Part shown: one piece after another, positions 37,177-61,505 of the stretch | Layout of the letters: every line of letters begins with the position of its first letter | Numbering within the stretch: position 1 is the first letter of the stretch | IMG/VR virus record: IMGVR_UViG_3300008117_000018 | Span: 1 to 64,000 of that record | Strand: one strand, 5' to 3' | Origin: a virus | DNA: 64,000 nucleotides | Position numbers and translations under genes: made by a program | The notes under the pieces: model-generated | What the model was told of the DNA's origin: nothing | The model's database searches: none | What the model saw: only the letters and a program-made list of their open reading frames with translations

Positions 37177-37551
37177 TGGAGATGACGATGTACTGCCCAT
37201 CGTGTCTTCCCTAGTTAACAATAATTATTCATTCACAGGCTTAGAAAGTTTTTCGAAACTTACAAAATAGTTAGTTGAACAACCCATCACTCTAACAATT
37301 CTGGTTTCACATTTTTAACTGTGTGATTCAGCTGGAGAATTTTTTCGAAAGCTTAAAAGATTAAACTAAAGATAGCTCTTCTGCCTTAAGCATGTTGTTT
37401 TGTAACGCCGCTACTAAATCTTCACGGGATGCTACTTCATTTGTTTTGCCATTTACGACTTTTTGCCACCAAATTTATTAGTCGGTTACTTGACCATCCG
37501 ACACCTGCATAATCACCACTACTCTATGAATCTATACTAAAAAACATCCCC
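37177..37551 (-). ncRNA. ssrA: tmRNA (one-piece, about 375 nt)
   Basis: 5' GGGGATG pairs with 3' CATCTCC-A (G3.U70 Ala identity); T-arm ACGATG-GGCAGTA-CATCGT; resume context TAAAT|GGC; tag ORF 37450..37361; flanked by a promoter and a terminator. Confidence 0.92.
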
Positions 37552-37576
37552 ATAGTTTATATTGTAATTATTTCTA

Positions 37577-37584
37577 CAAATGTA
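37577..37584 (-). promoter_or_regulatory. Bacteroidota-type -7 box TACATTTG for tmRNA
   Basis: TAnnTTTG about 25 nt upstream of G1; a TATATA tract overlaps it. Confidence 0.55.
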
Positions 37585-37612
37585 TATATAATATTATAAA
37601 ATACAAAAAAGT

Positions 37613-38011
37613 TTAGATATTATCTTCATATTTAAAATATATGTCCATTCTACACTCACCAGCATTATATTGAGAGTTTGGCTTATCAAAGGCAACACCA
37701 GTTCCCCAATACTTCGTCTTCTCTGAACTATATAGAAACTTATTATCTTTTAAATAATCAGAAACGACACCTATAACATCACTAACTTCATTCCAAGTTA
37801 ATTCACGAGATTCTTTTTTAAGTTTAATTATTATATAATAACCATTAGGACCTTTTCTATTACCAACTTTTACAAATCGAGACTCACCTTCAATATTTTT
37901 AAAATTCAATTCTAATAAAATATCATTAACAATAGGAGTAATATCATTAATAATCTCACTAACATCAGAATCTATTGATTCAAAAAATTTAAAATCTGTT
38001 AAATATCTCAT
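37613..38011 (-). CDS. Hypothetical protein with leader
   Basis: MRYLTDFKFFES. Confidence 0.7.
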   Translation of the reverse strand: MRYLTDFKFFESIDSDVSEIINDITPIVNDILLELNFKNIEGESRFVKVGNRKGPNGYYIIIKLKKESRELTWNEVSDVIGVVSDYLKDNKFLYSSEKTKYWGTGVAFDKPNSQYNAGECRMDIYFKYEDNI

Positions 38012-38014
38012 TAT

Positions 38015-38290
38015 TTAATTAAATACATCAGGAGAATCACCTTCTTCAGGTTCATATTCATCAGAGTCTAAACTCTTTATAATGTTTTCAACTTCTTCAT
38101 AAGAGTCATAATTTGTCCAAAGAGAACCTTTGCCAAACAATTCTTCAGCGTCTTCAGCATCTTTATAAGTTAGACCATCAGCCATCATTTTTGGAGTGAG
38201 TGCGAATATTCTAAAGTGGCTACCAACTCTATTTACAAAATATTTAACTTTATCGTTGTTAAAACTTTCAAATAATTTAATGTATTTCAT
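38015..38290 (-). CDS. Hypothetical protein with leader
   Basis: MKYIKLFESFN. Confidence 0.7.
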   Translation of the reverse strand: MKYIKLFESFNNDKVKYFVNRVGSHFRIFALTPKMMADGLTYKDAEDAEELFGKGSLWTNYDSYEEVENIIKSLDSDEYEPEEGDSPDVFN

Positions 38291-38302
38291 ATTATTTATT
38301 TT

Positions 38303-38872
38303 TTAGAAAGGCATTGTATCATCATCTAAGCCTTCATCTAAAGTAAAACCAAATGAAAGTATCCCACCACCAGATTTTGATTGCCAAATGTCAAATTCAG
38401 CATCATATTGAGCTAAAATATCTCTTTTAAGTTTGTTAGCGACTTCGAAAACTTTGATAACATTTCTTAATGTTTCCTTTTTAGCCATATGAACCTCTAT
38501 TACAATGTCTTCATTTCTTTTAGCGGTAATTTGCACATTATCAACTCCTGAATTTCTAAACATTTGACGAAGTAAATAAGTTAAATGCTGAACATCATCA
38601 TCTTCATCATCTTCATCATATCCATAATCATCATCATCATCATCATCAAACTTCGGATTTGATGATTTTTTTCCAGAATAGTATTTATCGTCTTCATCAT
38701 CATACCAATCATCATACTCACCATAATCTTTAGTAGAATCATCATCATACTCATAATCATCTTCTGGCCAACGTGCTTCATTTTTTTTATTAGCAGAAAG
38801 ACCATTGTTTAGATGACTAAATTCATCTTCTCTGATATTTTCTAAATATTTTATAAATGTTTTTATTTTCAT
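38303..38872 (-). CDS. Highly acidic protein with leader
   Basis: MKIKTFIKYLEN; long Asp/Tyr-rich tract. Confidence 0.75.
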   Translation of the reverse strand: MKIKTFIKYLENIREDEFSHLNNGLSANKKNEARWPEDDYEYDDDSTKDYGEYDDWYDDEDDKYYSGKKSSNPKFDDDDDDDYGYDEDDEDDDVQHLTYLLRQMFRNSGVDNVQITAKRNEDIVIEVHMAKKETLRNVIKVFEVANKLKRDILAQYDAEFDIWQSKSGGGILSFGFTLDEGLDDDTMPF

Positions 38873-38873
38873 A

Positions 38874-40409
38874 TTATTTCAATTCTATTTTAAAATATGT
38901 CTCATCAAAGAATCCTAAATCCTCTATTTTATATTTGTTTAATATTGTTTGTACTCTAATTAGAGCATCATAAATTTCACCCATATCGGTTTCTTCTAAG
39001 TCTAAACTAACAAAGATTCTATCATCTTTACCAACAACTTTAACATCAATTCCAAAGACATTCTTTTTTATCTCATTAATCATGCTTTTATGCTTAGCAA
39101 ATAACTCTTCATTATAACCAACTTTTCTTTTAATTGGAAGTTTATTCCAATCAACTTTTACCGAAGCTTCAGCTAATCTTTTAAGGTAAGAAATATTTTG
39201 CATTTCTGTTCCTCTATGTTCATTATAATAACCAACTGATATATTTGTACATTCTGGTATGTCCTCCATTAATGACGCGGAATCTGTATAAACACCAGTT
39301 GGATCTAATGATAAATTTAATCCATTTTTATTATATTCATCACACAAAGCCTGACCAAATTCGTTAGAACAACATTGTCTACCTAATTGATGTGTTATAA
39401 CAGATGTTGTCCTTCTTCTATCAAAAGAAACACAAGCTTTTACATCAGTTAGATAATCACATCTATCATAAATAGATGAAAGAGCATTAGAACCAATACC
39501 ACCTCTCTCTTCACCAATAAAGAAGTAATAAATACCTGGAACATTATTAGCCATCATATATAACATAACAGCAGTACCAGCTTTATCATCAGCGCCTAAT
39601 ATTGAAGAGCCGTCGGTATAGATATGTTCATCACCAGTTCCACTTTTTATCAATCTAAATGAATAACCTTCTTCAACTACTCGACCATTGACTTGAAATA
39701 ATTTTGTCGTTTTTTGTTCTCTATCAGCCGTATCTAAATGACAAGTAAACATTATTGTTGGTTTTTCAGAACCAATTATTTTATAATAATTTCCAACTTG
39801 GTCTCTCTCAAGAGATGGTAAAAATTTTAAAACTTCCTTTTCATGTCTACAATCATCAAAATGTGGATATGTTTTTGTAGTTAATGAAAGAAAAGTTGCT
39901 TTAACATCTTTAGGATTATACGAAAACTCAGGAACCTTTATTCTTTGAGCTGAGGTAATTGATTCATCGCCAATATTATCAGATGTCATATCATTATATT
40001 GATATATGAATGACTTAATTTCATCTTCTGTTAATAATCCTGGCCAATAATATCTGAAAAATTTACCAATCTTCATATCAAATTTTTTACCACCAATAGT
40101 TACTTCAAAACAATAAGGTTTATTAGAAATAGTCACATCAGTTATACCTAAACCATTCTGGTACTTAGAATCAGACTCACCTAACCAAAGCATCTCAAAA
40201 GCAAGATAACTATCATTGTCTTCCATTTTTTTAAGAACTTTCTCTAATTCAGAAGATATTTTTATTCTAGCAGATCTATCAACATTTTTTGATTCATCAA
40301 AGACATCTTCTTTGCTTTTGTAACCACCACTTGGTTTGTAATCTTTAGCCTGGTCAACTACACTTTGTGTACCAGCTTCAAATATTTGACTATATTTTAA
40401 TAAATTCAT
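38874..40409 (-). CDS. M28/M20-like zinc metallohydrolase, paralog with leader and N-terminal extension
   Basis: HLDT, LGADDKAG, GEERG, FDRR, YTDS, GYYNEH; late promoter 40414-40423. Confidence 0.8.
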   Translation of the reverse strand: MNLLKYSQIFEAGTQSVVDQAKDYKPSGGYKSKEDVFDESKNVDRSARIKISSELEKVLKKMEDNDSYLAFEMLWLGESDSKYQNGLGITDVTISNKPYCFEVTIGGKKFDMKIGKFFRYYWPGLLTEDEIKSFIYQYNDMTSDNIGDESITSAQRIKVPEFSYNPKDVKATFLSLTTKTYPHFDDCRHEKEVLKFLPSLERDQVGNYYKIIGSEKPTIMFTCHLDTADREQKTTKLFQVNGRVVEEGYSFRLIKSGTGDEHIYTDGSSILGADDKAGTAVMLYMMANNVPGIYYFFIGEERGGIGSNALSSIYDRCDYLTDVKACVSFDRRRTTSVITHQLGRQCCSNEFGQALCDEYNKNGLNLSLDPTGVYTDSASLMEDIPECTNISVGYYNEHRGTEMQNISYLKRLAEASVKVDWNKLPIKRKVGYNEELFAKHKSMINEIKKNVFGIDVKVVGKDDRIFVSLDLEETDMGEIYDALIRVQTILNKYKIEDLGFFDETYFKIELK

Positions 40410-40425
40410 AATGTATATATTAAAT

Positions 40426-40809
40426 TCAAATTGTTATTTCTTCTGAATTTAGATAATCAACTTTTACTTGACCATCATTCATATTTGGCTCCTTCTTAAC
40501 AAACTTTCTTTGACAATATACAACTTTTACAGATGGCTCTTTAGCAGCTTTGCTATTTTTTTTAGCTAATTCCGCAGCATATTTCAATATCTCAGGTGTT
40601 GGTAAATTTTCTCTGACTCTAATTACAACATGGCTTCCAGGAACGCCTTTGACATGCATCCATATATCTTCATCTTCTGCTGTATTAAAGGTTAAAAAGT
40701 CATTAGATTTAGCGTCTCGACCAACCATTATTAAATAACCATCAACTTCTATTTTTTTGATGTCAGGAAATTTAACTTTTTTTGATTCAAAATATTTTAA
40801 ATATTTCAT
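40426..40809 (-). CDS. NFACT-R (RqcH/FbpA/NEMF RNA-binding) single-domain protein
   Basis: VGRDAKSNDFLT, DIWMHVKGVPGSHVVI, AAELAKKNS, V.Y.QRKFVKK; leader MKYLKYFES. Confidence 0.88.
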   Translation of the reverse strand: MKYLKYFESKKVKFPDIKKIEVDGYLIMVGRDAKSNDFLTFNTAEDEDIWMHVKGVPGSHVVIRVRENLPTPEILKYAAELAKKNSKAAKEPSVKVVYCQRKFVKKEPNMNDGQVKVDYLNSEEITI

Positions 40810-40836
40810 ATACTTATATATTAATTTATATAAAAC

Positions 40837-40865
40837 AAAAAAAGACCCATTAAGGGTCTTTTTTT
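40837..40865 (-). terminator. Intrinsic terminator after capsid gene
   Basis: A7-GACCC-attaa-GGGTC-T7. Confidence 0.85.
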
Positions 40866-40884
40866 GTTAATATTTAAACTATTT

Positions 40885-42609
40885 TTAGTTTAATAATCCA
40901 TAAGAATCAGAAACTTTAATAGTCATAAACTGTTTTTGTGGGAACCAACCAACTTCAGCAACAGCATATCTAGATCTCAACAACATTCTTGGAGCAAAAG
41001 TAGCCTCAGAAATCAAAGAGATTGATTGTGCCATTAAATAAGGTACGAAAATGATACCTGGTTGATCAGGATTGTTCTTTCTACCAAGAACGATTCTGTT
41101 ATCATTATATCTCATATATGGATCAACGTAGATAGAAATATCACCGATTGAACCAACAGGATATAATTGACCTTGTCCGTTTAACTTAGACTTAACTGGG
41201 TTAATAGTGTAACCAGAAATATCAGCTAAAGCAGCAGCAAGACCCCCGTTTGTGATAAGGTATTGAGCTGGACCTACACGACCTTCAGTTGCAATGTAGT
41301 TAGAAGCGTGAGCAATTTTAGTGATAAGTTTTCTTTGTACGGCGTGAGTAGTTTCACCACCAACTGTACTAGTTACATAAGTAGTATCTAAGTCAAAGAT
41401 TGTTTGGCTAGCAATATTAGTTGAGAAAGTTAATCCAGCTAAAGGCGCGCTAGTTCTGTTAAGATCACCCATTTCAAAAATCTTAGCAACGATTTGCTTA
41501 GAAATTGTTTGAGATAATTCATTAACAAGAATAGATTCCATTTTTTGAACGATATCCATACCTGTGTTAGCTTTGATATCTTCAATTTCAGTTCTTCTAA
41601 GAGCTGAAGATACTTCAATAGTACCAACTGCGATAGTTTTAGAAGAGATTTTTGGTCCGATAACTCCAGAATATCTTGAGTCATCTTGATCTCTATCCAT
41701 TGGATATTGTCCAGAGAATTGAGAAGTTGAACCAGAGTTCCAGTTTGCAGAAAAACCAGGGATATGATCTTCTAACGCAGAAACCAATTCGATTGCAGGC
41801 TCACCACCTAAAGCAGTACCACCTAAAGCAATGATTTGAGAAGCCATAGACGTTGTAGAATCAAATGTATTTCTTGTTGTATCAAAAGCCCAAGTTGTAG
41901 CTGCAGAACCAACCGCTGTATGAGACGTGTTGAATTGTCTGTAAGCTCTGAACATTGGATAACCATCAATTCTTGAGAATCCTAAAAATTCAACTTTATT
42001 TTCTTTATCAGATGGCTCTGAAGTAATTGCAGCACCTGTATCGATGTTATTCCAAATTCTACCATTTAAACCACCTGTAGTTTCGCTAATAACTGGAGAA
42101 GAAGCTGCTAACTGAGCTCTAAGACCAGCGATAACTGCTGTTAATTTAGTAGAAGTCAATCCTGCTGTTTTAGGAGCAATTTTGAAAACTTGTGGTCTTT
42201 CATCTTCATTTCCTAAACGAGTATCATCGTATTGGAAGTCGATGTAAAGAAGGTCGATTTTCGGACCTGGAGATGGTTTAACAGCAACAAGGTCAAGACC
42301 GATTGTTTGAGCAGCAATTTTCATAGCTACAGGAAGTAAGTTTTGACCTACATCTCCTGAACCATTTGAACCACCAAAACCAGCCCAATTGTTACCAATT
42401 GTTGAACCAGCTAAAGTTGAAGGTTGTGGAGCAACAACACCACCCATACCAGCAACGTTAGAAGCATTCACATAAGCGTTCTCGTTGATTGAGTGGAACT
42501 CAGCATATTCTGACATCCAATCAATTCTCTCACCAGTAACACCCATGTTCTCAAGAACTGGAGACCATTTCTTGATAGCTTTAGATTTGTCTATTCTAAT
42601 GTGTGACAT
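40885..42609 (-). CDS. Major capsid protein (T4 gp23-like)
   Basis: KKWSPVLE N-terminus, DLVAVKP, IYVDPY, GIIFVPY, TFAPRMLLRSRYA; follows the protease gene. Confidence 0.93.
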   Translation of the reverse strand: MSHIRIDKSKAIKKWSPVLENMGVTGERIDWMSEYAEFHSINENAYVNASNVAGMGGVVAPQPSTLAGSTIGNNWAGFGGSNGSGDVGQNLLPVAMKIAAQTIGLDLVAVKPSPGPKIDLLYIDFQYDDTRLGNEDERPQVFKIAPKTAGLTSTKLTAVIAGLRAQLAASSPVISETTGGLNGRIWNNIDTGAAITSEPSDKENKVEFLGFSRIDGYPMFRAYRQFNTSHTAVGSAATTWAFDTTRNTFDSTTSMASQIIALGGTALGGEPAIELVSALEDHIPGFSANWNSGSTSQFSGQYPMDRDQDDSRYSGVIGPKISSKTIAVGTIEVSSALRRTEIEDIKANTGMDIVQKMESILVNELSQTISKQIVAKIFEMGDLNRTSAPLAGLTFSTNIASQTIFDLDTTYVTSTVGGETTHAVQRKLITKIAHASNYIATEGRVGPAQYLITNGGLAAALADISGYTINPVKSKLNGQGQLYPVGSIGDISIYVDPYMRYNDNRIVLGRKNNPDQPGIIFVPYLMAQSISLISEATFAPRMLLRSRYAVAEVGWFPQKQFMTIKVSDSYGLLN

Positions 42610-42693
42610 AATTTTATTTATTTTTTTTTGTTTTATAATCTATATATTTCCTTTATTTTTCGATTTTTTCGAAGGTGGATTTTTTATAGATTA

Positions 42694-44784
42694 TTATAAA
42701 TTTTTGAATCTTTCTAAGATTGCTTGAGCTTCATTGTCTGAGATTTTATCTTCTTGGATAAGTGCCTCATGTGAAACTAATTTCTTAGTAACTGATTCAT
42801 TCTTTTTGAGATTTCTAGTCAACCAGAAATGCTCAACTTGTGCTTCAGTTTTTAATACATCTTCTGGATAAAGTCTTGCTTGAGAAAGCAATGATTTTTT
42901 AGAAGACTCATTTAACTGATTCCAGACTGGCTTAACGTTTTCAGGCATCAATCTGATAACTCTTTCTTCAAGAGTCTCGTTCTTAGTTGATAATGCTTCT
43001 GCGATCAGACCTAACACATCTTTCTGTGTGAAATAACTTCTTTCGTTTATGTGAAGTTTTACAGTTTCCTGTTCTTCGTCTGATAATGCATAAAAGCTAT
43101 CTACTTGTGACTTGTTTAAGAACTTTAAGAAATTCAAGTCAGTAGTTTCAGAAACTTTACGTTTTTTAGCTTCTTCAATAAGTTTATTAATAGATTCTGA
43201 TAATTCAGTATCGTCTTTTCCTGTTACTTCGTAAGAAGATGGACCACATTCTTCCTCTTCTTCCTCTTTATTATGAACGTGAGTCGCTTCAGCAGCTGGA
43301 ACACCATTCATGTTATATTCTGCTTCTTCATCATCTTCTTTATTCCAAGAATTTTCTTTTTCATCATCTTCAACCATTTCAAAACCAGCAGCGTTTAAAG
43401 AAGGAAATGCACCTTCTGATTCGAATAATTTACCACCATTTAATTTTTCAACGATTAATCCTTGATAAGAAATTGATTTATCTAAGCTTTCAGCGATGTA
43501 TTCAGAGTAAGCAATATTATCATCTAAATGTTCAGCGATGTATTCAGAGTAAGCAATATTACCTTCAACATGCTCTGCTAAATACTCAGAATAAGCAATA
43601 GAATTATCAACATGTTCAGCTATATACTCAGCATAAGCAATGTTTTTATCTAAGTTTTCAGCGATGTATTCAGAGTAAGCAATATTTTTGTCTAAGTTTT
43701 CAGCCAAATATTCAGAGTAAGCAATATTTTTGTCTAAGTTTTCAGCCAAATATTCAGAATAAGAAATGTTTTTGTCTAAGTTTTCAGCGATATATTCAGA
43801 ATAAGAAATATTCTTATCAAGATTCTCAGCTAAATACTCTGAGTACTCAATATTTTTATCTAAATTTTCAGCAACATACTCTGTGTAATTAATAGCCTTT
43901 TCTAAGTTTTCAGCTAAATAATCATTGTGTTTAACTAATTTTTCAGTCGTAGATTTAAGAGATTTGTTCTCATTTACAACAACTTGAATTTTCTCAGCTA
44001 AATAATCTAAGTATTTTACCACTTTAGAATTTGTCTCGTTTAACTCCTCATAATACTCAAGTAGTTGTTCTAATTTTTTAGGACTCATATTTCCTTTAGA
44101 AATTGCATTTTTGACTTCTTTCTTAGTAGAGGCAATCTCATTTACTAAGTATTGTGAATAATCAGTCAACTGTTTTTTTGTTACGAATTCGTTTTTGTTC
44201 ATGTTGAATAATTCATTTATTTTAGACTCGTCGGACATTTCATATATCCTAAAGTTAGATTGTGGATTGTATCCTAAGGACTCATTCAAAACTTTAACAC
44301 TCATTTTTGCAGAAGCAAAACCTGGGTCAGCTACTATATCATATGTGAAAAGTTTTTTCAAAGAAACAGAACCATCAGATTCAGTGATACCAGCTGCTCT
44401 TGATGATACAAATACTGGACAACCATCATCAACCAAAGCCTTTGCCTCTTTACCCCAATAAGTTGATAAAAGTTTAATTTCACCAGATACTAAGTTTTGT
44501 TCTTTAATGTATTGCGCTTTAGTGATTGTGTGAGATGCTCTTGCCAAAGATGTATCAAAAACATCTGGGTGGTCAAATTCACCATAAACAGCACCTAAAC
44601 TATTCATTCTTTCGTTTAATTCATCTAAGGCAGGAAGGAATTTATCTGCAGTATAGATTCTTTCGTTTCTATTCTTAACACCAAATTCCGTGAATGTACC
44701 TCCTAAGATATAATCCTTCTTACTAGAAGAATTTTCTCTAATAAGAGAATTAGTTGAGTTTTCTACTATTAAAACTGGTTTCAT
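42694..44784 (-). CDS. Prohead protease (gp21-like) fused to coiled-coil scaffold
   Basis: NRNERIY, GEFDHP, SHTI, VSSRAAG, TYDIVADPGF; C-terminal repeats. Confidence 0.9.
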   Translation of the reverse strand: MKPVLIVENSTNSLIRENSSSKKDYILGGTFTEFGVKNRNERIYTADKFLPALDELNERMNSLGAVYGEFDHPDVFDTSLARASHTITKAQYIKEQNLVSGEIKLLSTYWGKEAKALVDDGCPVFVSSRAAGITESDGSVSLKKLFTYDIVADPGFASAKMSVKVLNESLGYNPQSNFRIYEMSDESKINELFNMNKNEFVTKKQLTDYSQYLVNEIASTKKEVKNAISKGNMSPKKLEQLLEYYEELNETNSKVVKYLDYLAEKIQVVVNENKSLKSTTEKLVKHNDYLAENLEKAINYTEYVAENLDKNIEYSEYLAENLDKNISYSEYIAENLDKNISYSEYLAENLDKNIAYSEYLAENLDKNIAYSEYIAENLDKNIAYAEYIAEHVDNSIAYSEYLAEHVEGNIAYSEYIAEHLDDNIAYSEYIAESLDKSISYQGLIVEKLNGGKLFESEGAFPSLNAAGFEMVEDDEKENSWNKEDDEEAEYNMNGVPAAEATHVHNKEEEEEECGPSSYEVTGKDDTELSESINKLIEEAKKRKVSETTDLNFLKFLNKSQVDSFYALSDEEQETVKLHINERSYFTQKDVLGLIAEALSTKNETLEERVIRLMPENVKPVWNQLNESSKKSLLSQARLYPEDVLKTEAQVEHFWLTRNLKKNESVTKKLVSHEALIQEDKISDNEAQAILERFKNL
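43480..43925 (-). repeat. About 10 tandem 42-nt (14-aa) repeats AENLDKNIAYSEY(L/I)
   Basis: Visible in both DNA and protein. Confidence 0.9.
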
Positions 44785-44958
44785 TCGCGAATAATTATTT
44801 TTTTCAGTTCAAAGTATATATATGCTTTATAAAACCATACTTTTTAAAAGGTGGATTTTTTACAGAACTTCTAATTCTTTTGACAAACACTACGTTTCAA
44901 AGGACTAAAAAGGAAGAATTAACTTTTTAATAAATAATTAAATTTTTTGCGGTTTTTT

Positions 44959-45360
44959 ATGATTTTGACCAGAGAGATAGTAGTAAAAATAAATGAGGCC
45001 AATTTCTCATACTATGAGAATTTAGGCTATGAGGATATAATAATAGGCGAAGAACTCATGATACCCGTAGAATTATTATCAAAAGGTTCTCATCACAAAA
45101 TAAAGTGCAAATGTGATTCATGTGGTATTGAAAAAGATGTGATATTTAAAAATTATGTAAAGTACGATAATAAATTTGGAGAATATAGTTGTAGAAAATG
45201 CTCCGAAAAGAAAAGAAAAGAAACATTACAAAAAAACTACGGTGTGGATTATCCTATTCAAAATAAAAAAGTTATGAGTAAAATGAAGAAAACACTTGTA
45301 AAAAAATATGGTGTAGACAATATTTCGAAAAGAGAAACTAAACAAAAGAGTTCTAAATAA
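44959..45360 (+). CDS. Zn-ribbon protein resembling the DNA-binding part of homing endonucleases
   Basis: SKGSH.KIKCKCDSCG, CRKC, two K.YGVD repeats; no nuclease domain visible. Confidence 0.6.
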   Translation: MILTREIVVKINEANFSYYENLGYEDIIIGEELMIPVELLSKGSHHKIKCKCDSCGIEKDVIFKNYVKYDNKFGEYSCRKCSEKKRKETLQKNYGVDYPIQNKKVMSKMKKTLVKKYGVDNISKRETKQKSSK

Positions 45361-45370
45361 TAAAACTTCT

Positions 45371-47248
45371 ATGATAAATATAATAGAAGGTGACCGATAT
45401 GAAGGTCAAATAGAGTTTTCGAATAACGGAAATGCAACAACAACAATAGGTGAAAAATTAATATTCATACATAGAAAAAACACAAAAAATTCTTTACACT
45501 TAGATAATGTACGAATAGAAATATTCAAAGGTGAAAAAAAACTTGAAGGAAAAGTTATAGAAGTTATTTCAAGATTCAGAACAGAATTTGTAGGCAGAGT
45601 TCAAATAGGAAAAAAATCAACATTTGTAATTCCAGATAGTGATAAATTATCAGTCGATTTTTATATAAAAGGAGGTTTAGTAGCAAAGGATGGTCAAAAA
45701 GTAATTGTAGAACTTACAAAATGGGAAGATAGCAAATCACCACAGGGAAAAATAACAAAAATATTAGGAGATGCTGGTGATAACAACGCAGAGATGAATT
45801 CAATAATGTATGAATATAATCTACCAGTAGATTTTCCACAAGAAGTACTTAACGAGTCGGAATTAGTTCCAGAAGTTATATTTGATAAAGAAATATCTCT
45901 AAGAAGAGATATGAGAAACATAACTACATTAACAATTGATCCAGTAGATGCTAGAGACTTTGATGACGCTCTTTCAATTAATATAATAAATGAAAATAAT
46001 ATTGAAGTTGGGGTTCATATTGCAGATGTAGGTCATTATGTAAAACCAGGAACTAAATTAGACGATGAGGCATTTAAGAGAGCAACTTCTGTCTATCTTG
46101 TAGATAGATGTGTACCAATGATTCCCGAAAGACTAAGTAATGGAATATGCTCATTAAAACCAAATGAGGACAGATTAGCATTTTCAGTTGTTTTTAATAT
46201 TGACAAAGATGGAAAGATTATCAATGAGTGGCATGGAAAAACTGTCATTCACTCCGATAGAAGATTTACTTATGAAGAAGCTCAAGAAATAATTGAAGGA
46301 CAAGAAGGTGATTTCCAAAATGAAATAAGAGTTCTTAACGGACTAGCTCAAAAAATTAGAAAGAAAAGAATAAGTGATGGCTCCATTGAAATGGGTGGAA
46401 TTGAAGTCAGGTTTAAGTTAGCAGATGATAATAAAAAACCGATTGGTGTCTATTTCAAAGAACAAAAAGAAGCTAACAAACTTATTGAAGAATTTATGCT
46501 ACTTGCAAACAAGTCAGTAGCTAAGATACTTTCTAATAATCAATGGTTTAATGTCTATAGAATACACGATACACCAAATATGGAAAAACTTCAACAACTT
46601 GTAGGAGTTTGTCAAAATTTTGGACACGATGTTGCAATAGAAGGCGAGGGTGATGAGTTAAAAAAATCCATAAACAAATTACTAAAAGAAATAAAAGGAA
46701 CTCCTGAAGAAAACATGATTGAAACTTTAGTAACAAGATGTATGTCTAAAGCAAAATACACAATAAAAAACATTGGACACTACGGATTAGGTTTCACACA
46801 TTACTCACACTTTACCTCACCAATTAGGAGATATCCAGACTTAATAACACATAGAATTCTTTTTGATTTTTTAAATAAAGGAAAACAAGGAAATCCTAAT
46901 AAAATTGAAGAACAAGCCAGTTGGTGTTCAAGTAGAGAGCTAATTGCGGCAAAAGCTCAACGAGATTCAATTAAGTATAAACAAGCAGAATTCTTACAAG
47001 ATAAAATTGGTCAAGTTTTTGATGGAATAGTATCAGGAGTCACTGATTGGGGTATCTATGTAGAGCTTATAGATTCTAAATGCGAAGGAATGATTCGATA
47101 TAATAGTATTGGTAAAGTAAAAGTAGATTTAGACCACTATACCATCACTGATGAAATGGGAAATAAAATCAGACTAGGAGATCCTTTAAAAGTTATTGTT
47201 TCATCAGTTGATTTAGAAAAGAAACAAATTGATTTTAAATTATTCTGA
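45371..47248 (+). CDS. rnr: Ribonuclease R
   Basis: TIDP.DARDFDDALS, HIADV, RATSVYL, LIEEFMLLAN, HFTSPIRRYPD, C-terminal S1. Confidence 0.95.
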   Translation: MINIIEGDRYEGQIEFSNNGNATTTIGEKLIFIHRKNTKNSLHLDNVRIEIFKGEKKLEGKVIEVISRFRTEFVGRVQIGKKSTFVIPDSDKLSVDFYIKGGLVAKDGQKVIVELTKWEDSKSPQGKITKILGDAGDNNAEMNSIMYEYNLPVDFPQEVLNESELVPEVIFDKEISLRRDMRNITTLTIDPVDARDFDDALSINIINENNIEVGVHIADVGHYVKPGTKLDDEAFKRATSVYLVDRCVPMIPERLSNGICSLKPNEDRLAFSVVFNIDKDGKIINEWHGKTVIHSDRRFTYEEAQEIIEGQEGDFQNEIRVLNGLAQKIRKKRISDGSIEMGGIEVRFKLADDNKKPIGVYFKEQKEANKLIEEFMLLANKSVAKILSNNQWFNVYRIHDTPNMEKLQQLVGVCQNFGHDVAIEGEGDELKKSINKLLKEIKGTPEENMIETLVTRCMSKAKYTIKNIGHYGLGFTHYSHFTSPIRRYPDLITHRILFDFLNKGKQGNPNKIEEQASWCSSRELIAAKAQRDSIKYKQAEFLQDKIGQVFDGIVSGVTDWGIYVELIDSKCEGMIRYNSIGKVKVDLDHYTITDEMGNKIRLGDPLKVIVSSVDLEKKQIDFKLF

Positions 47249-50967: not shown

Positions 50968-51495
50968 ATGTTAAACTCTAAGCCAAATAATACTAATTAT
51001 TCTCAAGGTAATTATATTCCTAAAAACAAAGATAAAATAATAAAATTAAATACAATAGGTGGTGTTTACTACAGAAGTTCTTGGGAAAAAAAAATTATGA
51101 CTTGGTTAGATCATAATGAAAAAATAACTAAGTGGGGAGCAGAATGTATGAGAATACCTTATCAAATGACTCATTTTGATAATGGTGACATGAAAGTAAA
51201 AGAGCACTGCTACTATCCAGATTTTTATTATGAGATGAGAAACGAAAACGGTCAGTTAAGGCAAGTAGTTGTAGAAGTAAAACCTATGAAAGAATATAAA
51301 ATGGTCATTGCGTTAAACGAAGGTAAACTCCAAGTTCCAGAAAAGGGTACAAAAAAGTTAAAAAACTTTGAATATGATTTGAAAATGGCATATAAGAATA
51401 AAAACAAGTGGGAAACGATGATAAACTGGTGCAATAAAAAGGGTTATGAGTTTATAATAATTACTGAAGACCATCTAAAGAAATTTAATGTTTGA
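50968..51495 (+). CDS. Head completion nuclease (T4 gp4/TnsA-like)
   Basis: YRSSWE, IPY, YYPDF, VEVKP, N..KW, F.IITE. Confidence 0.9.
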   Translation: MLNSKPNNTNYSQGNYIPKNKDKIIKLNTIGGVYYRSSWEKKIMTWLDHNEKITKWGAECMRIPYQMTHFDNGDMKVKEHCYYPDFYYEMRNENGQLRQVVVEVKPMKEYKMVIALNEGKLQVPEKGTKKLKNFEYDLKMAYKNKNKWETMINWCNKKGYEFIIITEDHLKKFNV

Positions 51496-52198: not shown

Positions 52199-53272
52199 AT
52201 GAAAATTAAATTAGAGTATATTTGGTTAGATGGTTCTGAGCCACAACAACTCAGAAGTAAAACAAAAATTGTTGACAAAGCAGATACAAATAATCCAGAG
52301 GATTACGCAATGTGGTCTTTTGATGGAAGTTCAACTCTTCAAGCAGAGGCAGGAAAAGGGAAAAACACTGATTGTTTACTAAAACCAGTTTTTGTCTGTA
52401 AAGACCCATTTAGAGAGTATCCTAATAAATTGGTATTTTGTGAGGTACTTAGTCCAGATGGAACTCCTCATCCAACAAATAATAGAAGAAATTTATCTAA
52501 TGTTATAGATGAGTTAAATCTTACGAATTTAACTAAAGACGAGTCTCCATGGTTTGGTTGGGAGCAAGAGTATACACTTACTCATAAACCAGGATTGCCA
52601 TTTGGTGAGGGTGTTGGTCTTCCACTTGGATTTGAAATTGGTAAAACACCAAGAGCACAAGGTGATTATTATTGCGGAATCGGAGCTGACACTGTAATTG
52701 GAAGACAAATAGTTGAAGAGCACATGGATATGTGTTTAGAGATTGGTTTAGATATTTCTGGTATTAATGCTGAGGTTTTACTTGGTCAATGGGAATATCA
52801 AATTGGCCCCGTAACTGCTTTGAACGGTTCTGATCAATTATGGATATCAAGATATATTTTGGAAAGAGTTGCAGAAAAACATAATGTCAACGTATCTTTA
52901 CATCCGAAACCAATTAAAGGAGATTGGAATGGAACCGGTTGTCACGTCAATTTCTCTTCTAAAGAAATGAGAAAAGATGGTGGTATCGAATTGATTAAAG
53001 AAACAATGACAAAGCTTGAATCAACTCATATGGAACACATCCAGGTTTATGGTCTACATAATGAACAAAGACTTACTGGTGAACATGAGACATCAGGAAT
53101 TCATGAATTTAGTTATGGATATAGCACTAGAGATACTTCTATTAGAATTCCAGCACAATCTTTGGTTGAAGGTAGAGGTTATTTTGAAGACAGACGACCA
53201 GCCTCAAATTGTGACCCTTACTTAGTATCTGCTAAAATGTTAGAAACAGTTTATTCTGAAGTATTAGTATAA
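52199..53272 (+). CDS. glnII: Glutamine synthetase type II
   Basis: EYIWLDG, LRSKT, WSFDGSST, GWEQEY, YYCGIG, INAEV..GQWEYQ, DWNGTGCH, RLTG.HET, GYFEDRRPASN.DPY; 357 aa. Confidence 0.95.
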   Translation: MKIKLEYIWLDGSEPQQLRSKTKIVDKADTNNPEDYAMWSFDGSSTLQAEAGKGKNTDCLLKPVFVCKDPFREYPNKLVFCEVLSPDGTPHPTNNRRNLSNVIDELNLTNLTKDESPWFGWEQEYTLTHKPGLPFGEGVGLPLGFEIGKTPRAQGDYYCGIGADTVIGRQIVEEHMDMCLEIGLDISGINAEVLLGQWEYQIGPVTALNGSDQLWISRYILERVAEKHNVNVSLHPKPIKGDWNGTGCHVNFSSKEMRKDGGIELIKETMTKLESTHMEHIQVYGLHNEQRLTGEHETSGIHEFSYGYSTRDTSIRIPAQSLVEGRGYFEDRRPASNCDPYLVSAKMLETVYSEVLV

Positions 53273-53318: not shown

Positions 53319-53333
53319 ATTTTGATAAACTAT

Positions 53334-53699: not shown

Positions 53700-53787
53700 C
53701 CATTATAGCTTATTTTTTTAAGAGATTAACTCTTTGAAGCTATTTACTTCATGTTATATCTCTATAGTCTAAAAAGTTTAAAAAATA

Positions 53788-53813
53788 AAAAACCCTCAAA
53801 AAGAGGGTTTTTT
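53788..53813 (-). terminator. Intrinsic terminator
   Basis: AAAAACCCTC-aaaa-GAGGGTTTTT. Confidence 0.85.
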
Positions 53814-53830
53814 ATTTTTATTTATATAAA

Positions 53831-55111: not shown

Positions 55112-55183
55112 ACTTATAAATATTATTTTTTTATATAATCTATATATTAAGACAAAAAACTCATTTTTTGCTATTTTTTATTT

Positions 55184-56320: not shown

Positions 56321-56382
56321 AAGCATATATATTAAATAGAGTTTGTCCCTAAACTTATTCAATATTTAAAAATATATTTTCT

Positions 56383-57348
56383 ATGAGCATAAATAAATTA
56401 TTACTTTGGGAAAAATGGAGACCAAAAAAAATTGATGACATTATATTACTACCAAGAATAAAAAAACATTTTGAAGATGGATTAAATGGTAACTATATAT
56501 TTTATGGTAATTATGGTACAGGTAAAACAAGTCTGGCTAGAATATTAATAGGTAAGTATTCAAAAGATAAACCAAATTTAGAGATAAATAGCTCACTTTC
56601 AACTTCAATAAATATTTTAAGAAGTGAAATTGAAGACTTTTGTAAATTTACACCTATGATGGAATCAGAATCAGACTTAAAATATGTATTTTTAGATGAA
56701 TTTGAAAGAACATCACCTGAATTTCAGGATGCATTCAAAGCATTCATCGAAACATACTCAAAAAGAGGCGTAAGGTTTATTATAACAACTAATCACATTA
56801 ATAAAATATCAGATGGAATAAAAAGTAGAATACCTCAAATAAATTTTGATTGCCAGAATATTGAAGAAGAAAAATATTTAAAACAAGAAATTTACAAAAG
56901 AATATCAAATACAATATTACCATCTGAAAATTTTGAAATTCCAAAAGAAGATTTAGTTACAATAATAACAAAAAAATTTCCAGACTTTAGATCCACATTA
57001 GTAGAAGTAGGTAACTATATCAACACAGGTTCTCTAACTTCTTCATCAAATACAATAAACACAAAGACTAAATTAGAACTATACAATTTAATTTATGATA
57101 AAAATATAGACTATATCTCAATATATAATTTTGTGATTTCAAATTTTGGACCCGAAAAAATAGATGTTTTAATTAATTTATTAGGCAAATATTTCATAGA
57201 TTGGTCATTAAATGAAAATAAAAATATAGAAAAACTATTTGAATGTAACTATATAATAGCTGATTACACATCAAAGTTAGAGACTAACACTGATCCTATA
57301 GTATTAGCATTAACAATAATAGGTAAATTCAGGGATATATTATTATAA
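56383..57348 (+). CDS. Clamp loader large subunit (gp44/RFC-like AAA+)
   Basis: WEKWRP, GNYGTGKTS, FLDEFE, RFIITTN, IKSR, FPDFR. Confidence 0.9.
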   Translation: MSINKLLLWEKWRPKKIDDIILLPRIKKHFEDGLNGNYIFYGNYGTGKTSLARILIGKYSKDKPNLEINSSLSTSINILRSEIEDFCKFTPMMESESDLKYVFLDEFERTSPEFQDAFKAFIETYSKRGVRFIITTNHINKISDGIKSRIPQINFDCQNIEEEKYLKQEIYKRISNTILPSENFEIPKEDLVTIITKKFPDFRSTLVEVGNYINTGSLTSSSNTINTKTKLELYNLIYDKNIDYISIYNFVISNFGPEKIDVLINLLGKYFIDWSLNENKNIEKLFECNYIIADYTSKLETNTDPIVLALTIIGKFRDILL

Positions 57349-57373
57349 GATAAAATATTTTAATATATAAAAT

Positions 57374-57748
57374 ATGCCAGTAAACTTTAAAGATTTCTAC
57401 ATAGGATATAAAGGTCATCCAAGATACGAATCTTCTAAATTTATAGAAGATGATGTAATTAGAGTAATCGTTCAAAAATATGAAATGATAATTTTCACTA
57501 ACAAAGGTGAGTTATTAGGTGATCCTAGTTTTGGTGCTGATTTACCGCTATTACTTCATGAGACAAGACTCTCAGAAGATAGTATACAAGGCGATATAAA
57601 CGCTCAAATATTTGAATATATACCTGAAATAAGTAATATACCCTATACTTTAGAGGTCAATATTTATGATGATCCAGAAAGACACCAAGAGTGGATGGAA
57701 ATTCTTTTTCAGATTAGAGACTTAGAAGTATACGCAACAGTAATCTAA
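57374..57748 (+). CDS. Baseplate wedge protein (gp25-like)
   Basis: FTNKGE..GDP.FGADL..LL, EYIPE. Confidence 0.8.
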   Translation: MPVNFKDFYIGYKGHPRYESSKFIEDDVIRVIVQKYEMIIFTNKGELLGDPSFGADLPLLLHETRLSEDSIQGDINAQIFEYIPEISNIPYTLEVNIYDDPERHQEWMEILFQIRDLEVYATVI

Positions 57749-58197
57749 TCTACTCTATAACTATTTCTTTGCCAATATCTTTTACCATAACCGACAAATA
57801 TTTCTTCACCGGAACGAATATCTCTATCAGCAACTAAAACAACTTCATCATCATCATTCATTGTTATGATAGAATTATTTTTGAAATTTGAAGAGATACC
57901 CTCCGCATCATTTGCAAATTTCGCAAAACAAAAAGTTTTCTTACAATCTAATGTTTCACCAGACGGCAACATCATAAAATAATCATCTTCTTTTGCATTT
58001 GCTCTTTTTGCGGCCTCTTCATTTGATATTACTTCACCCATAAATTTTGATATTACTTCACCACATTCTATATCTATAGATGTAAAGAGTCCATTTCCGG
58101 AATTTGGAATTTGAGAAGACTGTACATATAAAAAATCTTCTTCTGGTAAATCTATTGAGTCGTAATCGAAATTTTCAAAAAATTTAAGATATTTCAT
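57745..58197 (-). CDS. SET-domain lysine methyltransferase with leader
   Basis: SQIPNSGNGLF, GEVI, AKFAND, RDIRSGEEIFVGYG..YW; MKYLKFFENF. Confidence 0.88.
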   Translation of the reverse strand: MKYLKFFENFDYDSIDLPEEDFLYVQSSQIPNSGNGLFTSIDIECGEVISKFMGEVISNEEAAKRANAKEDDYFMMLPSGETLDCKKTFCFAKFANDAEGISSNFKNNSIITMNDDDEVVLVADRDIRSGEEIFVGYGKRYWQRNSYRVD

Positions 58198-58210
58198 ATA
58201 CACTTAGGCT

Positions 58211-58825
58211 TTATTTGATAGGACAACTTGTGGCTGTCCAGATATATTTATAGTCTCTTTTTATTTTAACTCCTAAACTTTCAGCGGTTGTTACAACATC
58301 CTCCAAACACTCACCATCAGCACCACCAACTATTACTACCTCTCTTCCTTTAAGATCGGTAAGTAATTCATAAAGTTTTTTAGGACAATGAAACCAAACG
58401 TGATTGTTGTTGATAAAAGTAATTATTGTACCTTCTTTTGTTGGAAATATATCACCTTTTTTTAAAGACTTATTTTCTTCCCTTTTGCTAATGTCTTCAT
58501 ATACATTTTTATCTAATATTTTCTTGTAAAAATCAGCATCAACATCGTAATTATATCTTTTTTCAATTAATTCTTTTTGATTAGGAAAATGGTACAAATC
58601 TTTGTGTATTGGAATTTCAGGTTCATCTTCATATAAATAATCTTTATCTACGTTTTTACCATCAGGATGATTATCCCAAATTTGATAAACATTATTAAAA
58701 TTTTTACAATATTTTTTAAGTTCATTTAGATACATTTCAGAAAAAAACTTTCTGAATGATTTTTGAACATCAACTATTATTAGCGTATCTTCATTATAAC
58801 TCTCAAAGGTTTTAAGAAATCTCAT
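58211..58825 (-). CDS. Isochorismatase/cysteine-hydrolase-like protein with leader
   Basis: LIIVDVQ, EK.Y, IVGGA..EC; MRFLKTFESYNE. Confidence 0.7.
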   Translation of the reverse strand: MRFLKTFESYNEDTLIIVDVQKSFRKFFSEMYLNELKKYCKNFNNVYQIWDNHPDGKNVDKDYLYEDEPEIPIHKDLYHFPNQKELIEKRYNYDVDADFYKKILDKNVYEDISKREENKSLKKGDIFPTKEGTIITFINNNHVWFHCPKKLYELLTDLKGREVVIVGGADGECLEDVVTTAESLGVKIKRDYKYIWTATSCPIK

Positions 58826-58841
58826 AAACTATATATTAAAT

Positions 58842-58867
58842 AAAAAACCCATCATTTCTGATGGGTT
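58842..58867 (-). terminator. Intrinsic terminator
   Basis: AACCCATCA-tttc-TGATGGGTT with a T run on the minus strand. Confidence 0.75.
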
Positions 58868-58887
58868 ACTTAAATATTTTAATTAGA

Positions 58888-59559
58888 TTAAGCCGGTAGT
58901 TCTTCCTCACCCTCTTCCTCTTCTTGTGCTTGACCCTGTCCTTGTGCTTGACCCTGTCCTTGTGCTTGACCCTGTCCTTGTGCTTGACCCTGTCCTTGTG
59001 CTTGACCCTGTCCTTGTGCTTGAGGTTCTTCAAATTCACCTTCTTGAGCTTGAGCTTGACCTTGTGCTTGACCTTGTCCTTGTGCTTGACCTTGTGGCTG
59101 TGCTTGACCTTGTCCTTGTGCTTGACCTTGTCCTTGTGCTTGACCTTGTCCTTGTGCTTGACCTTGTGGTTGTGCTTGACTTTGTGGCTGTGCTTGACCT
59201 TGTGGCTGTGCTTGCATTTGAGCCTCACCTTCTACTTCAACTTGCGGTTGAGATTGAGATGATTGTCCCTGAGCTTGACCACCCATAAGAGCATTACCTG
59301 GAAGCTTTTCAACGTCCAAATTATTCATATTAATATATTTAACAATTTCCTCGGCGATATCAACATCCCCAAAAAATTGGCGTAAATTCTTACCTGTTGT
59401 ATCTTTTACTTTTTTAACATAAGCATTGATTAATGACTGAGGAATGTCAATCATTGTCTTAACTTTATAGATATCGTTTACTTGTAAAACAGATTCTTTT
59501 ATAATCTCTTCTCTGTTTTTTCTAATACGATAACTTTCAAATGTTCTAATGTGCTTCAT
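58888..59559 (-). CDS. Leader-bearing protein with Gln/Gly/Ala low-complexity tail
   Basis: MKHIRTFESY; (QGQGQA)n; late promoter 59584-59593. Confidence 0.8.
   Translation of the reverse strand: MKHIRTFESYRIRKNREEIIKESVLQVNDIYKVKTMIDIPQSLINAYVKKVKDTTGKNLRQFFGDVDIAEEIVKYINMNNLDVEKLPGNALMGGQAQGQSSQSQPQVEVEGEAQMQAQPQGQAQPQSQAQPQGQAQGQGQAQGQGQAQGQGQAQPQGQAQGQGQAQGQAQAQEGEFEEPQAQGQGQAQGQGQAQGQGQAQGQGQAQGQGQAQEEEEGEEELPA
58924..59215 (-). repeat. 18-nt tandem repeats encoding QGQGQA/QPQGQA
   Basis: tgtgcttgacc(c/t)tgtcct units. Confidence 0.9.
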
Positions 59560-59616
59560 TTTTTAGCTATATTTTTTATAAATTATATATTAAGTAAAAA
59601 AAATCATTTTTTTCAC

Positions 59617-60108
59617 TTATTTTAGAATAGATAATAATATCAATCCTATTATTCCAGCAACGCCTATACCATAACCAACATTCTTTTTCACCTTTAATCT
59701 TGTTATCTCACCTTCCAAAGTCGTGACTTTAGTATTTAATTCAATTTTCTGATTCTCACACTCGACAGAGAGCCTATTTGCATTGTCTAATCTTTGTTGT
59801 AAATTTGAAATAAGTAAATCTTTATCAACTAATTGTTCTTTTAACAACTTTACATCTAATTCAAGAAAAGAAATTGTCTTTTTTTGCTCATCTATAACTT
59901 TTATATAAGAATTACTAAGATTATCACAATCCACTATTGCCTTTTCTAAAAGTGATAATATTTCCATATTGTTGTCTAATTTTTGAGCCTGTTCTATAGT
60001 CATCACTACAACTTTATTACCACTCGAATCAACTTCAATTTTAGGGTAGGTTTGTGAAAAACAAAGTAAGCTAGTAAATAAAACTAATATAGTAAGAACG
60101 TGTTTCAT
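59617..60108 (-). CDS. Exported coiled-coil protein with C-terminal TM (spanin-like candidate)
   Basis: Signal peptide ending CFS-Q, coiled coil, C-terminal TM. Confidence 0.5.
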   Translation of the reverse strand: MKHVLTILVLFTSLLCFSQTYPKIEVDSSGNKVVVMTIEQAQKLDNNMEILSLLEKAIVDCDNLSNSYIKVIDEQKKTISFLELDVKLLKEQLVDKDLLISNLQQRLDNANRLSVECENQKIELNTKVTTLEGEITRLKVKKNVGYGIGVAGIIGLILLSILK

Positions 60109-60112
60109 ATAT

Positions 60113-60529
60113 TCAATTATTTTTTAATTTGTCTTTTAAAGAATTTATTAAGTCATCACCTTCTCTTTTTAAAGGATTATCTTTAAGTTTCTGTATTCTT
60201 TTTTTTGACTCTTCAAGTATTTTTTTATTATCAGATAATTGATTGTTTGCAATTATCAAATTATTTTTTGCCACTCTTAAATCTTTTTCAATATTTTTTA
60301 TTTTTTCATCCCTATTAGAGATTATTTTCTGTATAGAAATATAATCTTTTTCCAATTTTTTATTTACTATTTTCAAAGAGTCTCTAATCTTTTCTATTTC
60401 TTGAATCTTTCTATCAGATTCTTTAATTTTCTTCTTATAATCACTACCTTGCATATACCACATTGTAGCAAAAATGATAGAACTAACAAGTAATGCTAAA
60501 GTTATTATTGAATTAACATTTAACTTCAT
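60113..60529 (-). CDS. N-terminal TM plus coiled coil (i-spanin-like candidate)
   Basis: Topology only. Confidence 0.5.
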   Translation of the reverse strand: MKLNVNSIITLALLVSSIIFATMWYMQGSDYKKKIKESDRKIQEIEKIRDSLKIVNKKLEKDYISIQKIISNRDEKIKNIEKDLRVAKNNLIIANNQLSDNKKILEESKKRIQKLKDNPLKREGDDLINSLKDKLKNN

Positions 60530-60631
60530 AAACTTTAATTTTTTTGATTATATATAATTATAGTTACCTTCAATTTTGATTTAAAAAACAAAATTTGTAT
60601 TTTTGTATCAAATTATTTTAATAAATAAGAA

Positions 60632-61213
60632 ATGTCTAAAACTTTATACTCATTCGATTTTGACGATACTCTTTGTCATACTATGTTACCAGAAAATGGT
60701 GAAAAAATCTGGTTTGAAAAAACTGGAACAAAGTGGCCTTATAGAGGATGGTGGTCAAAACCAGAAACAGTAGACCCTGAAATATTTTTTACTCCAAAGA
60801 ATGAATGGGTTTATTTAGAGTATTTAAAAGCCAAAAGAGATGAAGACTCTACAATTATTATGGCAACTGGTAGATTACAAATAGTTCCTAATATGAGAGA
60901 AAATATCATAAAAATCTTAAACCAACATAATTTATCTTTTGATGAAGTTTGGATTATAAATTCCACAGACGAACAACAAAGTGGAAATGGAAAAGATGGA
61001 ATTTATTTAAATTGGGGCGGTGATACATTTATGTTTAAAACTACACTTTTTGAAAAACTAATATCTATTACTCAATGCGAACACTTTGTAATGTATGACG
61101 ATAGACAAGAACACTTAGGTAGATTTGAAGAGTGGGCATCAACTCAAAATTGTAAAGTAACAATAGTAGACGTTGTAAATAAAAAATCAACAATTATAAA
61201 CGAAAATATATAA
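60632..61213 (+). CDS. HAD-family phosphatase (RNA-repair-type HAD-like)
   Basis: FDFDDTL, WWS.PE, MATGR, K, MYDDR..H; TATTTTTG at 60598-60605. Confidence 0.75.
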   Translation: MSKTLYSFDFDDTLCHTMLPENGEKIWFEKTGTKWPYRGWWSKPETVDPEIFFTPKNEWVYLEYLKAKRDEDSTIIMATGRLQIVPNMRENIIKILNQHNLSFDEVWIINSTDEQQSGNGKDGIYLNWGGDTFMFKTTLFEKLISITQCEHFVMYDDRQEHLGRFEEWASTQNCKVTIVDVVNKKSTIINENI

Positions 61214-61214
61214 G

Positions 61215-61505
61215 ATGAATATGGCAACAATTACAAAAAAGAAAACATCAACAAAAGTTGAAGAATTATTATCTAAACCATATCTTTTGGTTTTACACAA
61301 TGATGATTATAACACATTCGACCACGTAATAAATTGTCTGATGAAACACTGCGGTCATGAATTTGAACAAGCGAATCAGTGCGCACATATAGTTCATTTT
61401 AATGGTAAATGTGACGTCAAATATGGAGATTATGACACGATTTCAACTATGAAAGATAAATTGAAAAATGCGGGTCTTTCGGTAACAATGGAGGCTAATT
61501 CATAA
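61215..61505 (+). CDS. clpS: ATP-dependent Clp protease adaptor
   Basis: LHNDDYNTFDHVI.CL...C.H..EQA.QCA.IVH..GKC.VK.G. Confidence 0.92.
   Translation: MNMATITKKKTSTKVEELLSKPYLLVLHNDDYNTFDHVINCLMKHCGHEFEQANQCAHIVHFNGKCDVKYGDYDTISTMKDKLKNAGLSVTMEANS

Follow-up and report, generated by a model that had tools for sequence, protein, structure and literature searches.

A 64,000-nucleotide stretch of viral DNA (positions 1 to 64,000 of IMG/VR record IMGVR_UViG_3300008117_000018; hereafter the window) carries genes for a transfer-messenger RNA (tmRNA), a lone NFACT-R domain, an RNase R-type nuclease and a ClpS homologue. This raises the question of whether the four act as one phage-run system for ribosome rescue and translation quality control or are separate modules. 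A single set had been proposed in an initial annotation made from the letters of the stretch, and homologue comparison and profile matches found all four genes where that annotation had placed them. The reading favoured here, with a probability of roughly 60%, is that the tmRNA is genuine and paired with SmpB, that the NFACT-R domain was captured and belongs to the late genes, and that the RNase R-type nuclease and ClpS stand apart, all of them having joined a large phage toolkit for translation and proteostasis independently of one another.

The IMG/VR viral contig from which the window is taken is 111 kb long and itself a genome fragment; its first 64 kb make up the window. At the DNA level, its closest catalogued relatives are the uncultured phages LR745206, LR756502 and LR756504 (634-642 kb), which are the largest Mahaphage-clade genomes of Al-Shayeb et al. 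2020, with hosts predicted to be Bacteroidetes (PMC7162821). The window is part of a freshwater huge phage of the Mahaphage clade, and its genes are intact under translation table 11. Five near-complete genomes served as the relatives for comparison, and co-occurrence was assessed in a catalogue of 50,697 phage records.

A divergent one-piece tmRNA and its probable SmpB partner

The tmRNA gene (37177..37551, minus strand, 375 nt) is a one-piece gene of a divergent family, identified from homologue comparison, the match of a homologue to Rfam family RF00023 and contigs from RNA libraries. An intrinsic terminator (37149..37168, minus strand), consisting of an 8-bp hairpin and a T-run, starts 8 nt past its 3' end. 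As judged from sequence comparison, the RNA is a genuine tmRNA, since its stems are compensated, its tag frame is conserved, the homologue L027 and a tmRNA of LR756504 match RF00023, the terminator and RNA contigs are present and SmpB is encoded by relatives.

Standard tools do not recognise the gene. With default settings, ARAGORN reported no tmRNA on the window, on 29 members of the family or on the tmRNA of LR756504. No tmRNA family of Rfam matched the window at the gathering score, nor at E<=10 over 1 kb, and RF00023 gave no match in the whole 111-kb record; the permuted Rfam tmRNA models matched neither the window (E<=10) nor the homologues. At -ps80/-ps70 ARAGORN placed the ends of the tRNA domain wrongly, and its output was taken solely as a hint of where the tag frame lies. 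Homologues were gathered from IMG/VR via conserved blocks and from the phage collection, which gave 28 distinct sequences of 66-98% identity; a scan for homologues with a 15-nt pattern was set aside, its loci being mostly chance. The RF00023 model aligns to L027 along its positions 1-374 (32.7 bits against a gathering score of 47; E 1.9e-9), and the ends of this match are exactly the hand-defined coordinates. A more distant relative in LR756504 (280507-280863, minus strand) scores 65.2 bits against RF00023, above the gathering score. Its CCA is encoded, its resume context is UAAAU-GAC, as in the family of the window, and its tag is DNVNSFEQSILNELFAPVEMAVAA (24 aa, with C-terminal MAVAA).

Al-Shayeb et al. 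2020 described both tmRNA and SmpB from huge phages and called the tmRNAs with ARAGORN (PMC7162821). Surveys of this kind would miss the present family, because ARAGORN finds none of its 29 members. In four of the five near-complete genomes the divergent RNA is the sole tmRNA, the other RF00023 matches there being short and tRNA-like, and these genomes would consequently pass for phages that have SmpB but no tmRNA. A family model would correct the annotation of huge phages as well as tmRNA databases.

The acceptor ends of the window copy, read on the minus strand from 37551 to 37177, are 5' GGGGAUG ... CAUCUCC-A 3', and CCA is not encoded. Six variants of the acceptor stem occur among the 28 homologues, each fully paired: GGGGAUG/CAUCUCC, GGGGAAG/CUUCUCC, GGGGCUG/CAGCUCC (the same as the acceptor of Escherichia coli tmRNA), GGGGGUG/CACCUCC and two wobble intermediates. 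The G3.U pair and the discriminator A73 are invariant. Of the 54 consensus pairs predicted by RNAalifold, 26 show double compensatory changes, including pairs of the T stem, of the PK1 hairpin and of the long P2 helix, in which alignment columns 22-50 pair with 342-375. The T stem is 6 bp long and covaries. Its loop is GGCAGUA in the window and GGCRGUR in the family, versus the canonical UUCRANY, and contains TTCG in the two most divergent members, L026 and L027. Uridines that carry modifications in the E. coli tmRNA are missing from the GGCRGUR loop (PMC3968760). The string GGCRGUA was also considered as a signature of alpha-proteobacterial two-piece tmRNAs; this was not confirmed, as the string was not found in the literature searched and the permuted models remained unmatched.

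The tag reading frame (37361..37450, minus strand) opens with resume codon GGC after UAAAU and consists of 29 codons followed by TAA, specifying GKTNEVASREDLVAALQNNMLKAEELSLV. All 28 homologues possess a frame of 27-30 codons that has no start codon, ends in TAA and tolerates indels in multiples of three, and in all of them the resume codon (GGC, GGA or GAC) follows an invariant UAAAY. The consensus of the tag peptide is G[KN][TV]NEV..EDLV[AF]AL[QK]NN..[VA], of which the EDLV[AF]AL core is invariant; the tags have ends such as LV, TV or VA, and in most members LVAA is followed by a CUA codon. Over the first 17 codons, synonymous changes make up 31% of the pairwise codon differences in frame versus 6% and 3% in the shifted frames, and one to eight stops interrupt the alternative frames of every homologue. 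Two alternative C-terminal modules are found across the family, ..LQNNM[LI]..[LV][VA] and ..LKAIGAKTPELV, with a length difference of 6 nt (alignment columns 150-195). The extension has two alternative forms, QNNM... and KAIGAKTPELV, and is itself conserved in both, for which reason the long tag is taken to be old and selected and not the result of a recent loss of a stop codon. A reading of the region as a small ORF in which TAG stands for Gln (Lak-type recoding) was rejected: the conserved frame is a different one, the alternative frames contain stops and the genes of the window are intact under table 11.

Like bacterial tmRNA (SsrA, RF00023), the phage RNA has a 7-bp acceptor with G3.U70 and A73, a T arm, a predicted long P2 and PK1 hairpin, a length of about 375 nt, a tag frame that has no start codon and closes with hydrophobic or small residues, and an SmpB partner, found here in related genomes. 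It differs in its 6-bp T stem and GGCRGUR loop, in the absence of an encoded CCA and in its tag, which with its invariant core is three times as long as the commonest tag length of 10 aa (PMC11915505). The family therefore offers a natural experiment on which features of a tmRNA are dispensable, among them T-loop identity, an encoded CCA and tag length.

In three studies, metatranscriptome contigs of lakes and fresh water fall mostly or exclusively on the tmRNA. In X5, one mismatch-free contig of 309 nt spans 37207-37515, with nothing else of the 4 kb compared. In X2 the word depth is ~500-530 across 37176-37461 versus ~27 on the flanking contig, and in X3 positions 37286-37486 are covered, with contig depths of 7-31. 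Only scattered low-depth pieces were found over the 4 kb in X1. This pattern of contigs is consistent with an abundant stable RNA.

SmpB was not found in the window, as had been noted in the initial annotation, nor in its 111-kb record, which is a fragment. A search beyond the window identified SmpB in each of the five near-complete relatives, with E about 1e-50 and at a distance from the tmRNA that exceeds 100 kb in every case; the protein is full length, with its C-terminal tail. This gene content supports a trans-translation pair, tmRNA and SmpB, belonging to the phage lineage itself; of the genes considered here, these two would form the only demonstrable functional pair, and theirs appears to be the sole mechanistic link left standing by the feature tests. 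The RNA would be processed at its 5' end and receive CCA before being charged with alanine through the G3.U pair. Acting with the SmpB of the phage itself, whose gene lies elsewhere in the genomes of relatives, it would then rescue non-stop ribosomes and add a tag of 30 residues, namely Ala and 29 encoded residues. That the RNA is instead a decoy, blocking trans-translation of the host rather than rescuing ribosomes, is very improbable. The non-canonical T-loop lacking U54/U55, the non-encoded CCA and the failure of standard models (ARAGORN, Rfam) on the window copy would suit such a decoy, but in 28 of 28 homologues the tag frame stays open and in frame and shows a coding-type constraint, the resume context and G3.U are invariant and the phages retain their own full-length SmpB.

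The gene immediately downstream of this terminator encodes a NADAR-domain protein (36638-37156, minus strand; PF08719, E 3e-25) and is followed up in the order of the loci given below; the adjacency to the tmRNA is kept in most homologous loci.

A lone NFACT-R domain in the capsid gene block

The second gene (40426..40809, minus strand) encodes a standalone NFACT-R protein of 127 aa, in which a disordered leader, MKYLKYFES(KK), precedes an RqcH-type NFACT-R domain with the motifs DIWMH and KGVPGSH. The protein matches PF05670 (E 1.5e-17), its only profile matches being to NFACT-R_1/2, and it aligns to residues 449-550 only of Bacillus subtilis RqcH (E 2e-14). NFACT-N and HhH gave no match in the 127-aa protein, and no coiled-coil-M region is present in its model. 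The description of a lone domain with a leader that is not a full RqcH is thus borne out, and a protein without the NFACT-N, HhH and coiled-coil parts is not expected to be capable of Ala-tailing.

An AlphaFold (AF2) model of the protein has a pLDDT of 86.6, with only residues 1-11 disordered. The best Foldseek hit of this model is the NFACT-R domain of RqcH on the 50S subunit (8S1U; TM 0.78, rmsd 1.4 A), and CCDC25 bound to double-stranded DNA (dsDNA) also matches (TM 0.75). Residues D48, W50 and H52, forming the DWH motif, are invariant in the phage family. It has been described that the NFACT-R domain of RqcH contacts the A-site finger H38 and that mutation of DWH abolishes association with the 50S subunit (bioRxiv 10.1101/2020.09.03.281279). 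By sequence and predicted fold, the phage protein is a captured RqcH domain, corresponding to the module that touches the 50S A-site finger and with its DWH motif intact. An earlier suggestion that it could act as a 50S-binding modulator or decoy remains reasonable because this motif is kept.

In comparison with RqcH/NEMF/Rqc2 (PDB 7AQC, 7AS8, 8S1U), the phage protein keeps DWH and PGSH and is 35-36% identical to those RqcH chains of B. subtilis whose structures are solved; it differs in lacking, along with the missing domains, the machinery for tRNA-Ala recruitment and tailing, and in its phage-specific N-terminal leader and its position in a block of capsid genes. Human CCDC25 (PDB 7EOF, 8WOH), which binds dsDNA, is likewise a standalone NFACT-R fold, but identity to it is lower (27-30%) and it has an added coiled coil. 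Uncharacterised lone NFACT-R genes are carried by algal giant viruses (PMC11467894), and these are the only parallels to the phage protein, itself uncharacterised. The family has at least 495 near-length metagenome members and about 40 clusters at 50% identity, beyond which full-length RqcH proteins follow at 40-48% identity. The nearest cellular copies found are from Bacillota, in a scan that was pattern-seeded and hence biased. Presence of NFACT-R does not track the T-loop type of the tmRNA, contigs with the TTCG-loop variants having NFACT-R too. As a minimal and easily expressed protein, it is a candidate binder of the 50S A-site finger and offers a starting point for asking why the domain is retained by large DNA viruses, both bacterial and algal.

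The T4-type head genes in the region comprise those for the portal, the head maturation protease, a gp23-type capsid protein and the large terminase. The gene for the T4 gp23-type major capsid protein (40885..42609, minus strand) is immediately upstream of NFACT-R, and that for the head maturation protease is at 42694..44784 on the same strand (phrog_207, E 6e-30). Directly after NFACT-R, a 511-aa peptidase with an M20/PepT-like region is conserved (38874..40409, minus strand; phrog_4191, E 9e-66), followed, between the peptidase and the tmRNA, by the likewise conserved p189, a protein of 189 aa whose family is unknown (38303..38872, minus strand). The order of capsid gene, NFACT-R, peptidase, p189, tmRNA and NADAR is found in about 30 loci, and the whole block is absent from LR756504, whose capsid protein is 52% identical. 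The homologues of the peptidase have GADDK and GEERGG motifs; its N-terminus is leader-like and its gene has a late motif of its own.

This motif, TTAATATATA, lies 5 nt upstream of the ATG of NFACT-R (40815..40824, minus strand), with a second copy before the peptidase gene (40414-40423). The window holds 18 copies versus 1.8 expected, mostly located a few bases 5' of start codons (for example at 40815, 40414, 49860 and 58830), and from this placement it is likely to be a late promoter. The leader of NFACT-R, MK[YH][LI][KR]xF[EN][ES], recurs on unrelated ORFs (38015, 57745, 58211, 58888, 33035 and 28050), at least seven ORFs matching strictly, and is kept in divergent NFACT-R homologues. One of these ORFs encodes a SET-domain protein (57745-58203, minus strand; PF00856, E 1e-12) whose leader, MKYLKFFEN, is the same as that of NFACT-R. 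Internal proteins of phage T4 carry a capsid-targeting sequence, MKTYQEFIAE, that is cut by the gp21 prohead protease. The phage leader (MK-x-[LI]-[KR]-x-F-[EN]-[ES]) resembles it in being a short peptide that unrelated proteins share at their N-termini, in a genome with T4-type portal, protease and capsid genes. It differs in that its motif departs from the L/I-x-E rule of T4 and in that its cleavage and the packaging of its carriers are putative.

NFACT-R may be a late protein, possibly packaged in the virion, with large ribosomal subunits or nucleic acid as its binding partner. A version of this role without ribosomes, in which a basic, nucleic-acid-binding internal head protein is packaged with the DNA by means of its leader and injected in the manner of T4 internal proteins, is considered unlikely. 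It would account for the gene's fixed position between the capsid gene and the peptidase, for the late motif, for a disordered N-terminal leader common to many unrelated ORFs and for a predicted pI of 9.0, and the model fits the CCDC25-dsDNA complexes almost as well as it fits RqcH. Against this, the family-invariant residues include DWH, which serves 50S binding in RqcH, the top sequence identities (36-47%) are to bacterial RqcH domains, and packaging and DNA binding are both putative. A further reading has two separate parts: an orthogonal pair of tmRNA (with a remodelled elbow) and SmpB, whose long conserved tag would be a handle for phage factors and not a simple ClpXP degron, and, apart from it, a capsid-delivered lone NFACT-R that would sit on the A-site finger of free 50S subunits in the next host. 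Host ribosome-associated quality control (RQC) or the reuse of subunits would in this way be blocked or redirected within minutes of the start of infection. Such an arrangement is regarded as distinctly unlikely.

The RNase R-type nuclease and ClpS

The third gene (45371..47248, plus strand) encodes an RNase R-type 3'-5' exoribonuclease core, CSD1-CSD2-RNB-S1 (RNB E 3e-111). The protein scores 646.3 bits against TIGR02063 (RNase R), above the equivalog cutoff of 597.85, with a match that starts at model position 68. Its S1 domain ends at residue 623 of 625, leaving a C-terminus of ...EKKQIDFKLF. Neither RNase R's N-terminal HTH nor its K-rich domain at the C-terminus was found in profile matches or in the C-terminal sequence, and in this respect the domain layout is the same as that of RNase II. 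The K-rich domain is needed for the tmRNA-SmpB-dependent recruitment of RNase R to rescued ribosomes (PMC3968760). The gene is on the strand opposite the tmRNA, from which it is 160 kb away in LR756502. A homing-endonuclease-like ORF (44947-45360, plus strand; phrog_12131, DUF7487) is found between it and the head protease gene.

The ClpS homologue (61215..61505, plus strand) is an adaptor of 96 aa that matches PF02617 (E 3.3e-19). In alignment with E. coli ClpS (PDB 3O2B/1MBU) the NDD pocket motif is kept, HNDDYNTFDHV in the phage versus VNDDYTPMEFV. The phage protein differs from E. coli ClpS in scoring below every NCBIfam ClpS equivalog cutoff, in the absence of a phage ClpA/ClpC and in its pairing with a HAD gene beside the terminase. 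This HAD gene, of the Swiss-Army-Knife RNA-repair type (60632..61213, plus strand; PF10307), abuts ClpS and lies beside the large terminase gene (TerL); the HAD-ClpS pair is kept in four of the five relatives. ClpS is an adaptor for N-degrons and is not known as the adaptor for ssrA tags. No ClpA/ClpC-type unfoldase with an N-domain (Clp_N) was found in the five relatives, which encode two to three ClpP paralogues. In two of the relatives a third, shorter ClpP-like ORF is 2-3 kb from SmpB (364599-365000 in LR756502; 81468-81875 in G001).

RNase R-type nuclease and ClpS genes are found clade-wide, ClpS being present in five of five relatives. Both are real genes of this clade that belong to other transcription units and, as far as their sequences tell, are without features that would tie them to trans-translation.

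One circuit or independent additions

The proposal of a single quality-control set holds for the tmRNA/SmpB pair and for the clade-wide presence of RNase R and ClpS; it does not hold for a shared unit, which is lacking, and the absent K-rich tail and the pairing of ClpS with a HAD gene also tell against it. The four genes are on different strands and in different transcription units. They are not a cassette, and from their arrangement a functional set is only partly supported. All components co-occur in a subclade, but close homologues of ClpS and of the lone NFACT-R are limited to genomes of this clade among the 50,697 phages, where RNase R is otherwise represented mostly by host-like fragments. 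Because close homologues are confined to one clade, co-occurrence is inseparable from common descent.

A single phage-run circuit of tmRNA(-SmpB), RNase R, NFACT-R and ClpS, which would preserve ribosome function while mRNAs and tRNAs are cleaved by RNase toxins of the host or by nucleases of abortive infection, is a minority reading, and a doubtful one. All five functions are present in the subclade, RNase R, NFACT-R and tmRNA are within ~10 kb in most loci, the relatives have ClpP paralogues as well, and the RNA-repair-type HAD gene abutting ClpS fits a theme of RNA damage. There is, however, no shared operon, and strands and distances vary, with RNase R as far off as noted above and SmpB never close. 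The nuclease is without the domain for recruitment by tmRNA-SmpB, ClpS serves another class of substrate with no ClpA/ClpC N-domain partner encoded, and NFACT-R sits among the capsid genes. More generally, functional systems should not be read from gene lists in genomes with very large translation toolkits.

The favoured reading, of a tmRNA-SmpB pair with the other genes as independent additions, has points of its own to answer. The T-loop is without U54, U55 and A58, which normally shape the elbow read by SmpB, and the single-sequence fold of the RNA is no more stable than shuffled sequences (z -0.38, pseudoknots being outside the fold model). Contig depth cannot strictly rank genes, contigs show no RNA ends and RNA libraries may hold DNA. 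The role of the leader as a capsid-targeting signal is presumed by analogy with T4. The block from RNase R through tmRNA travels together in most loci, so some functional coupling is possible. Finally, RqcH is found in 404 of 1,956 genomes of the FCB group (PMC11633108), so that the host may or may not have RqcH.

Two further genes were identified in this part of the window. A glutamine-synthetase-like gene (Gln-synt_C/N) is located at 52199-53272 on the plus strand, and a TnsA-like endonuclease is encoded at 50968-51495, among structural genes.

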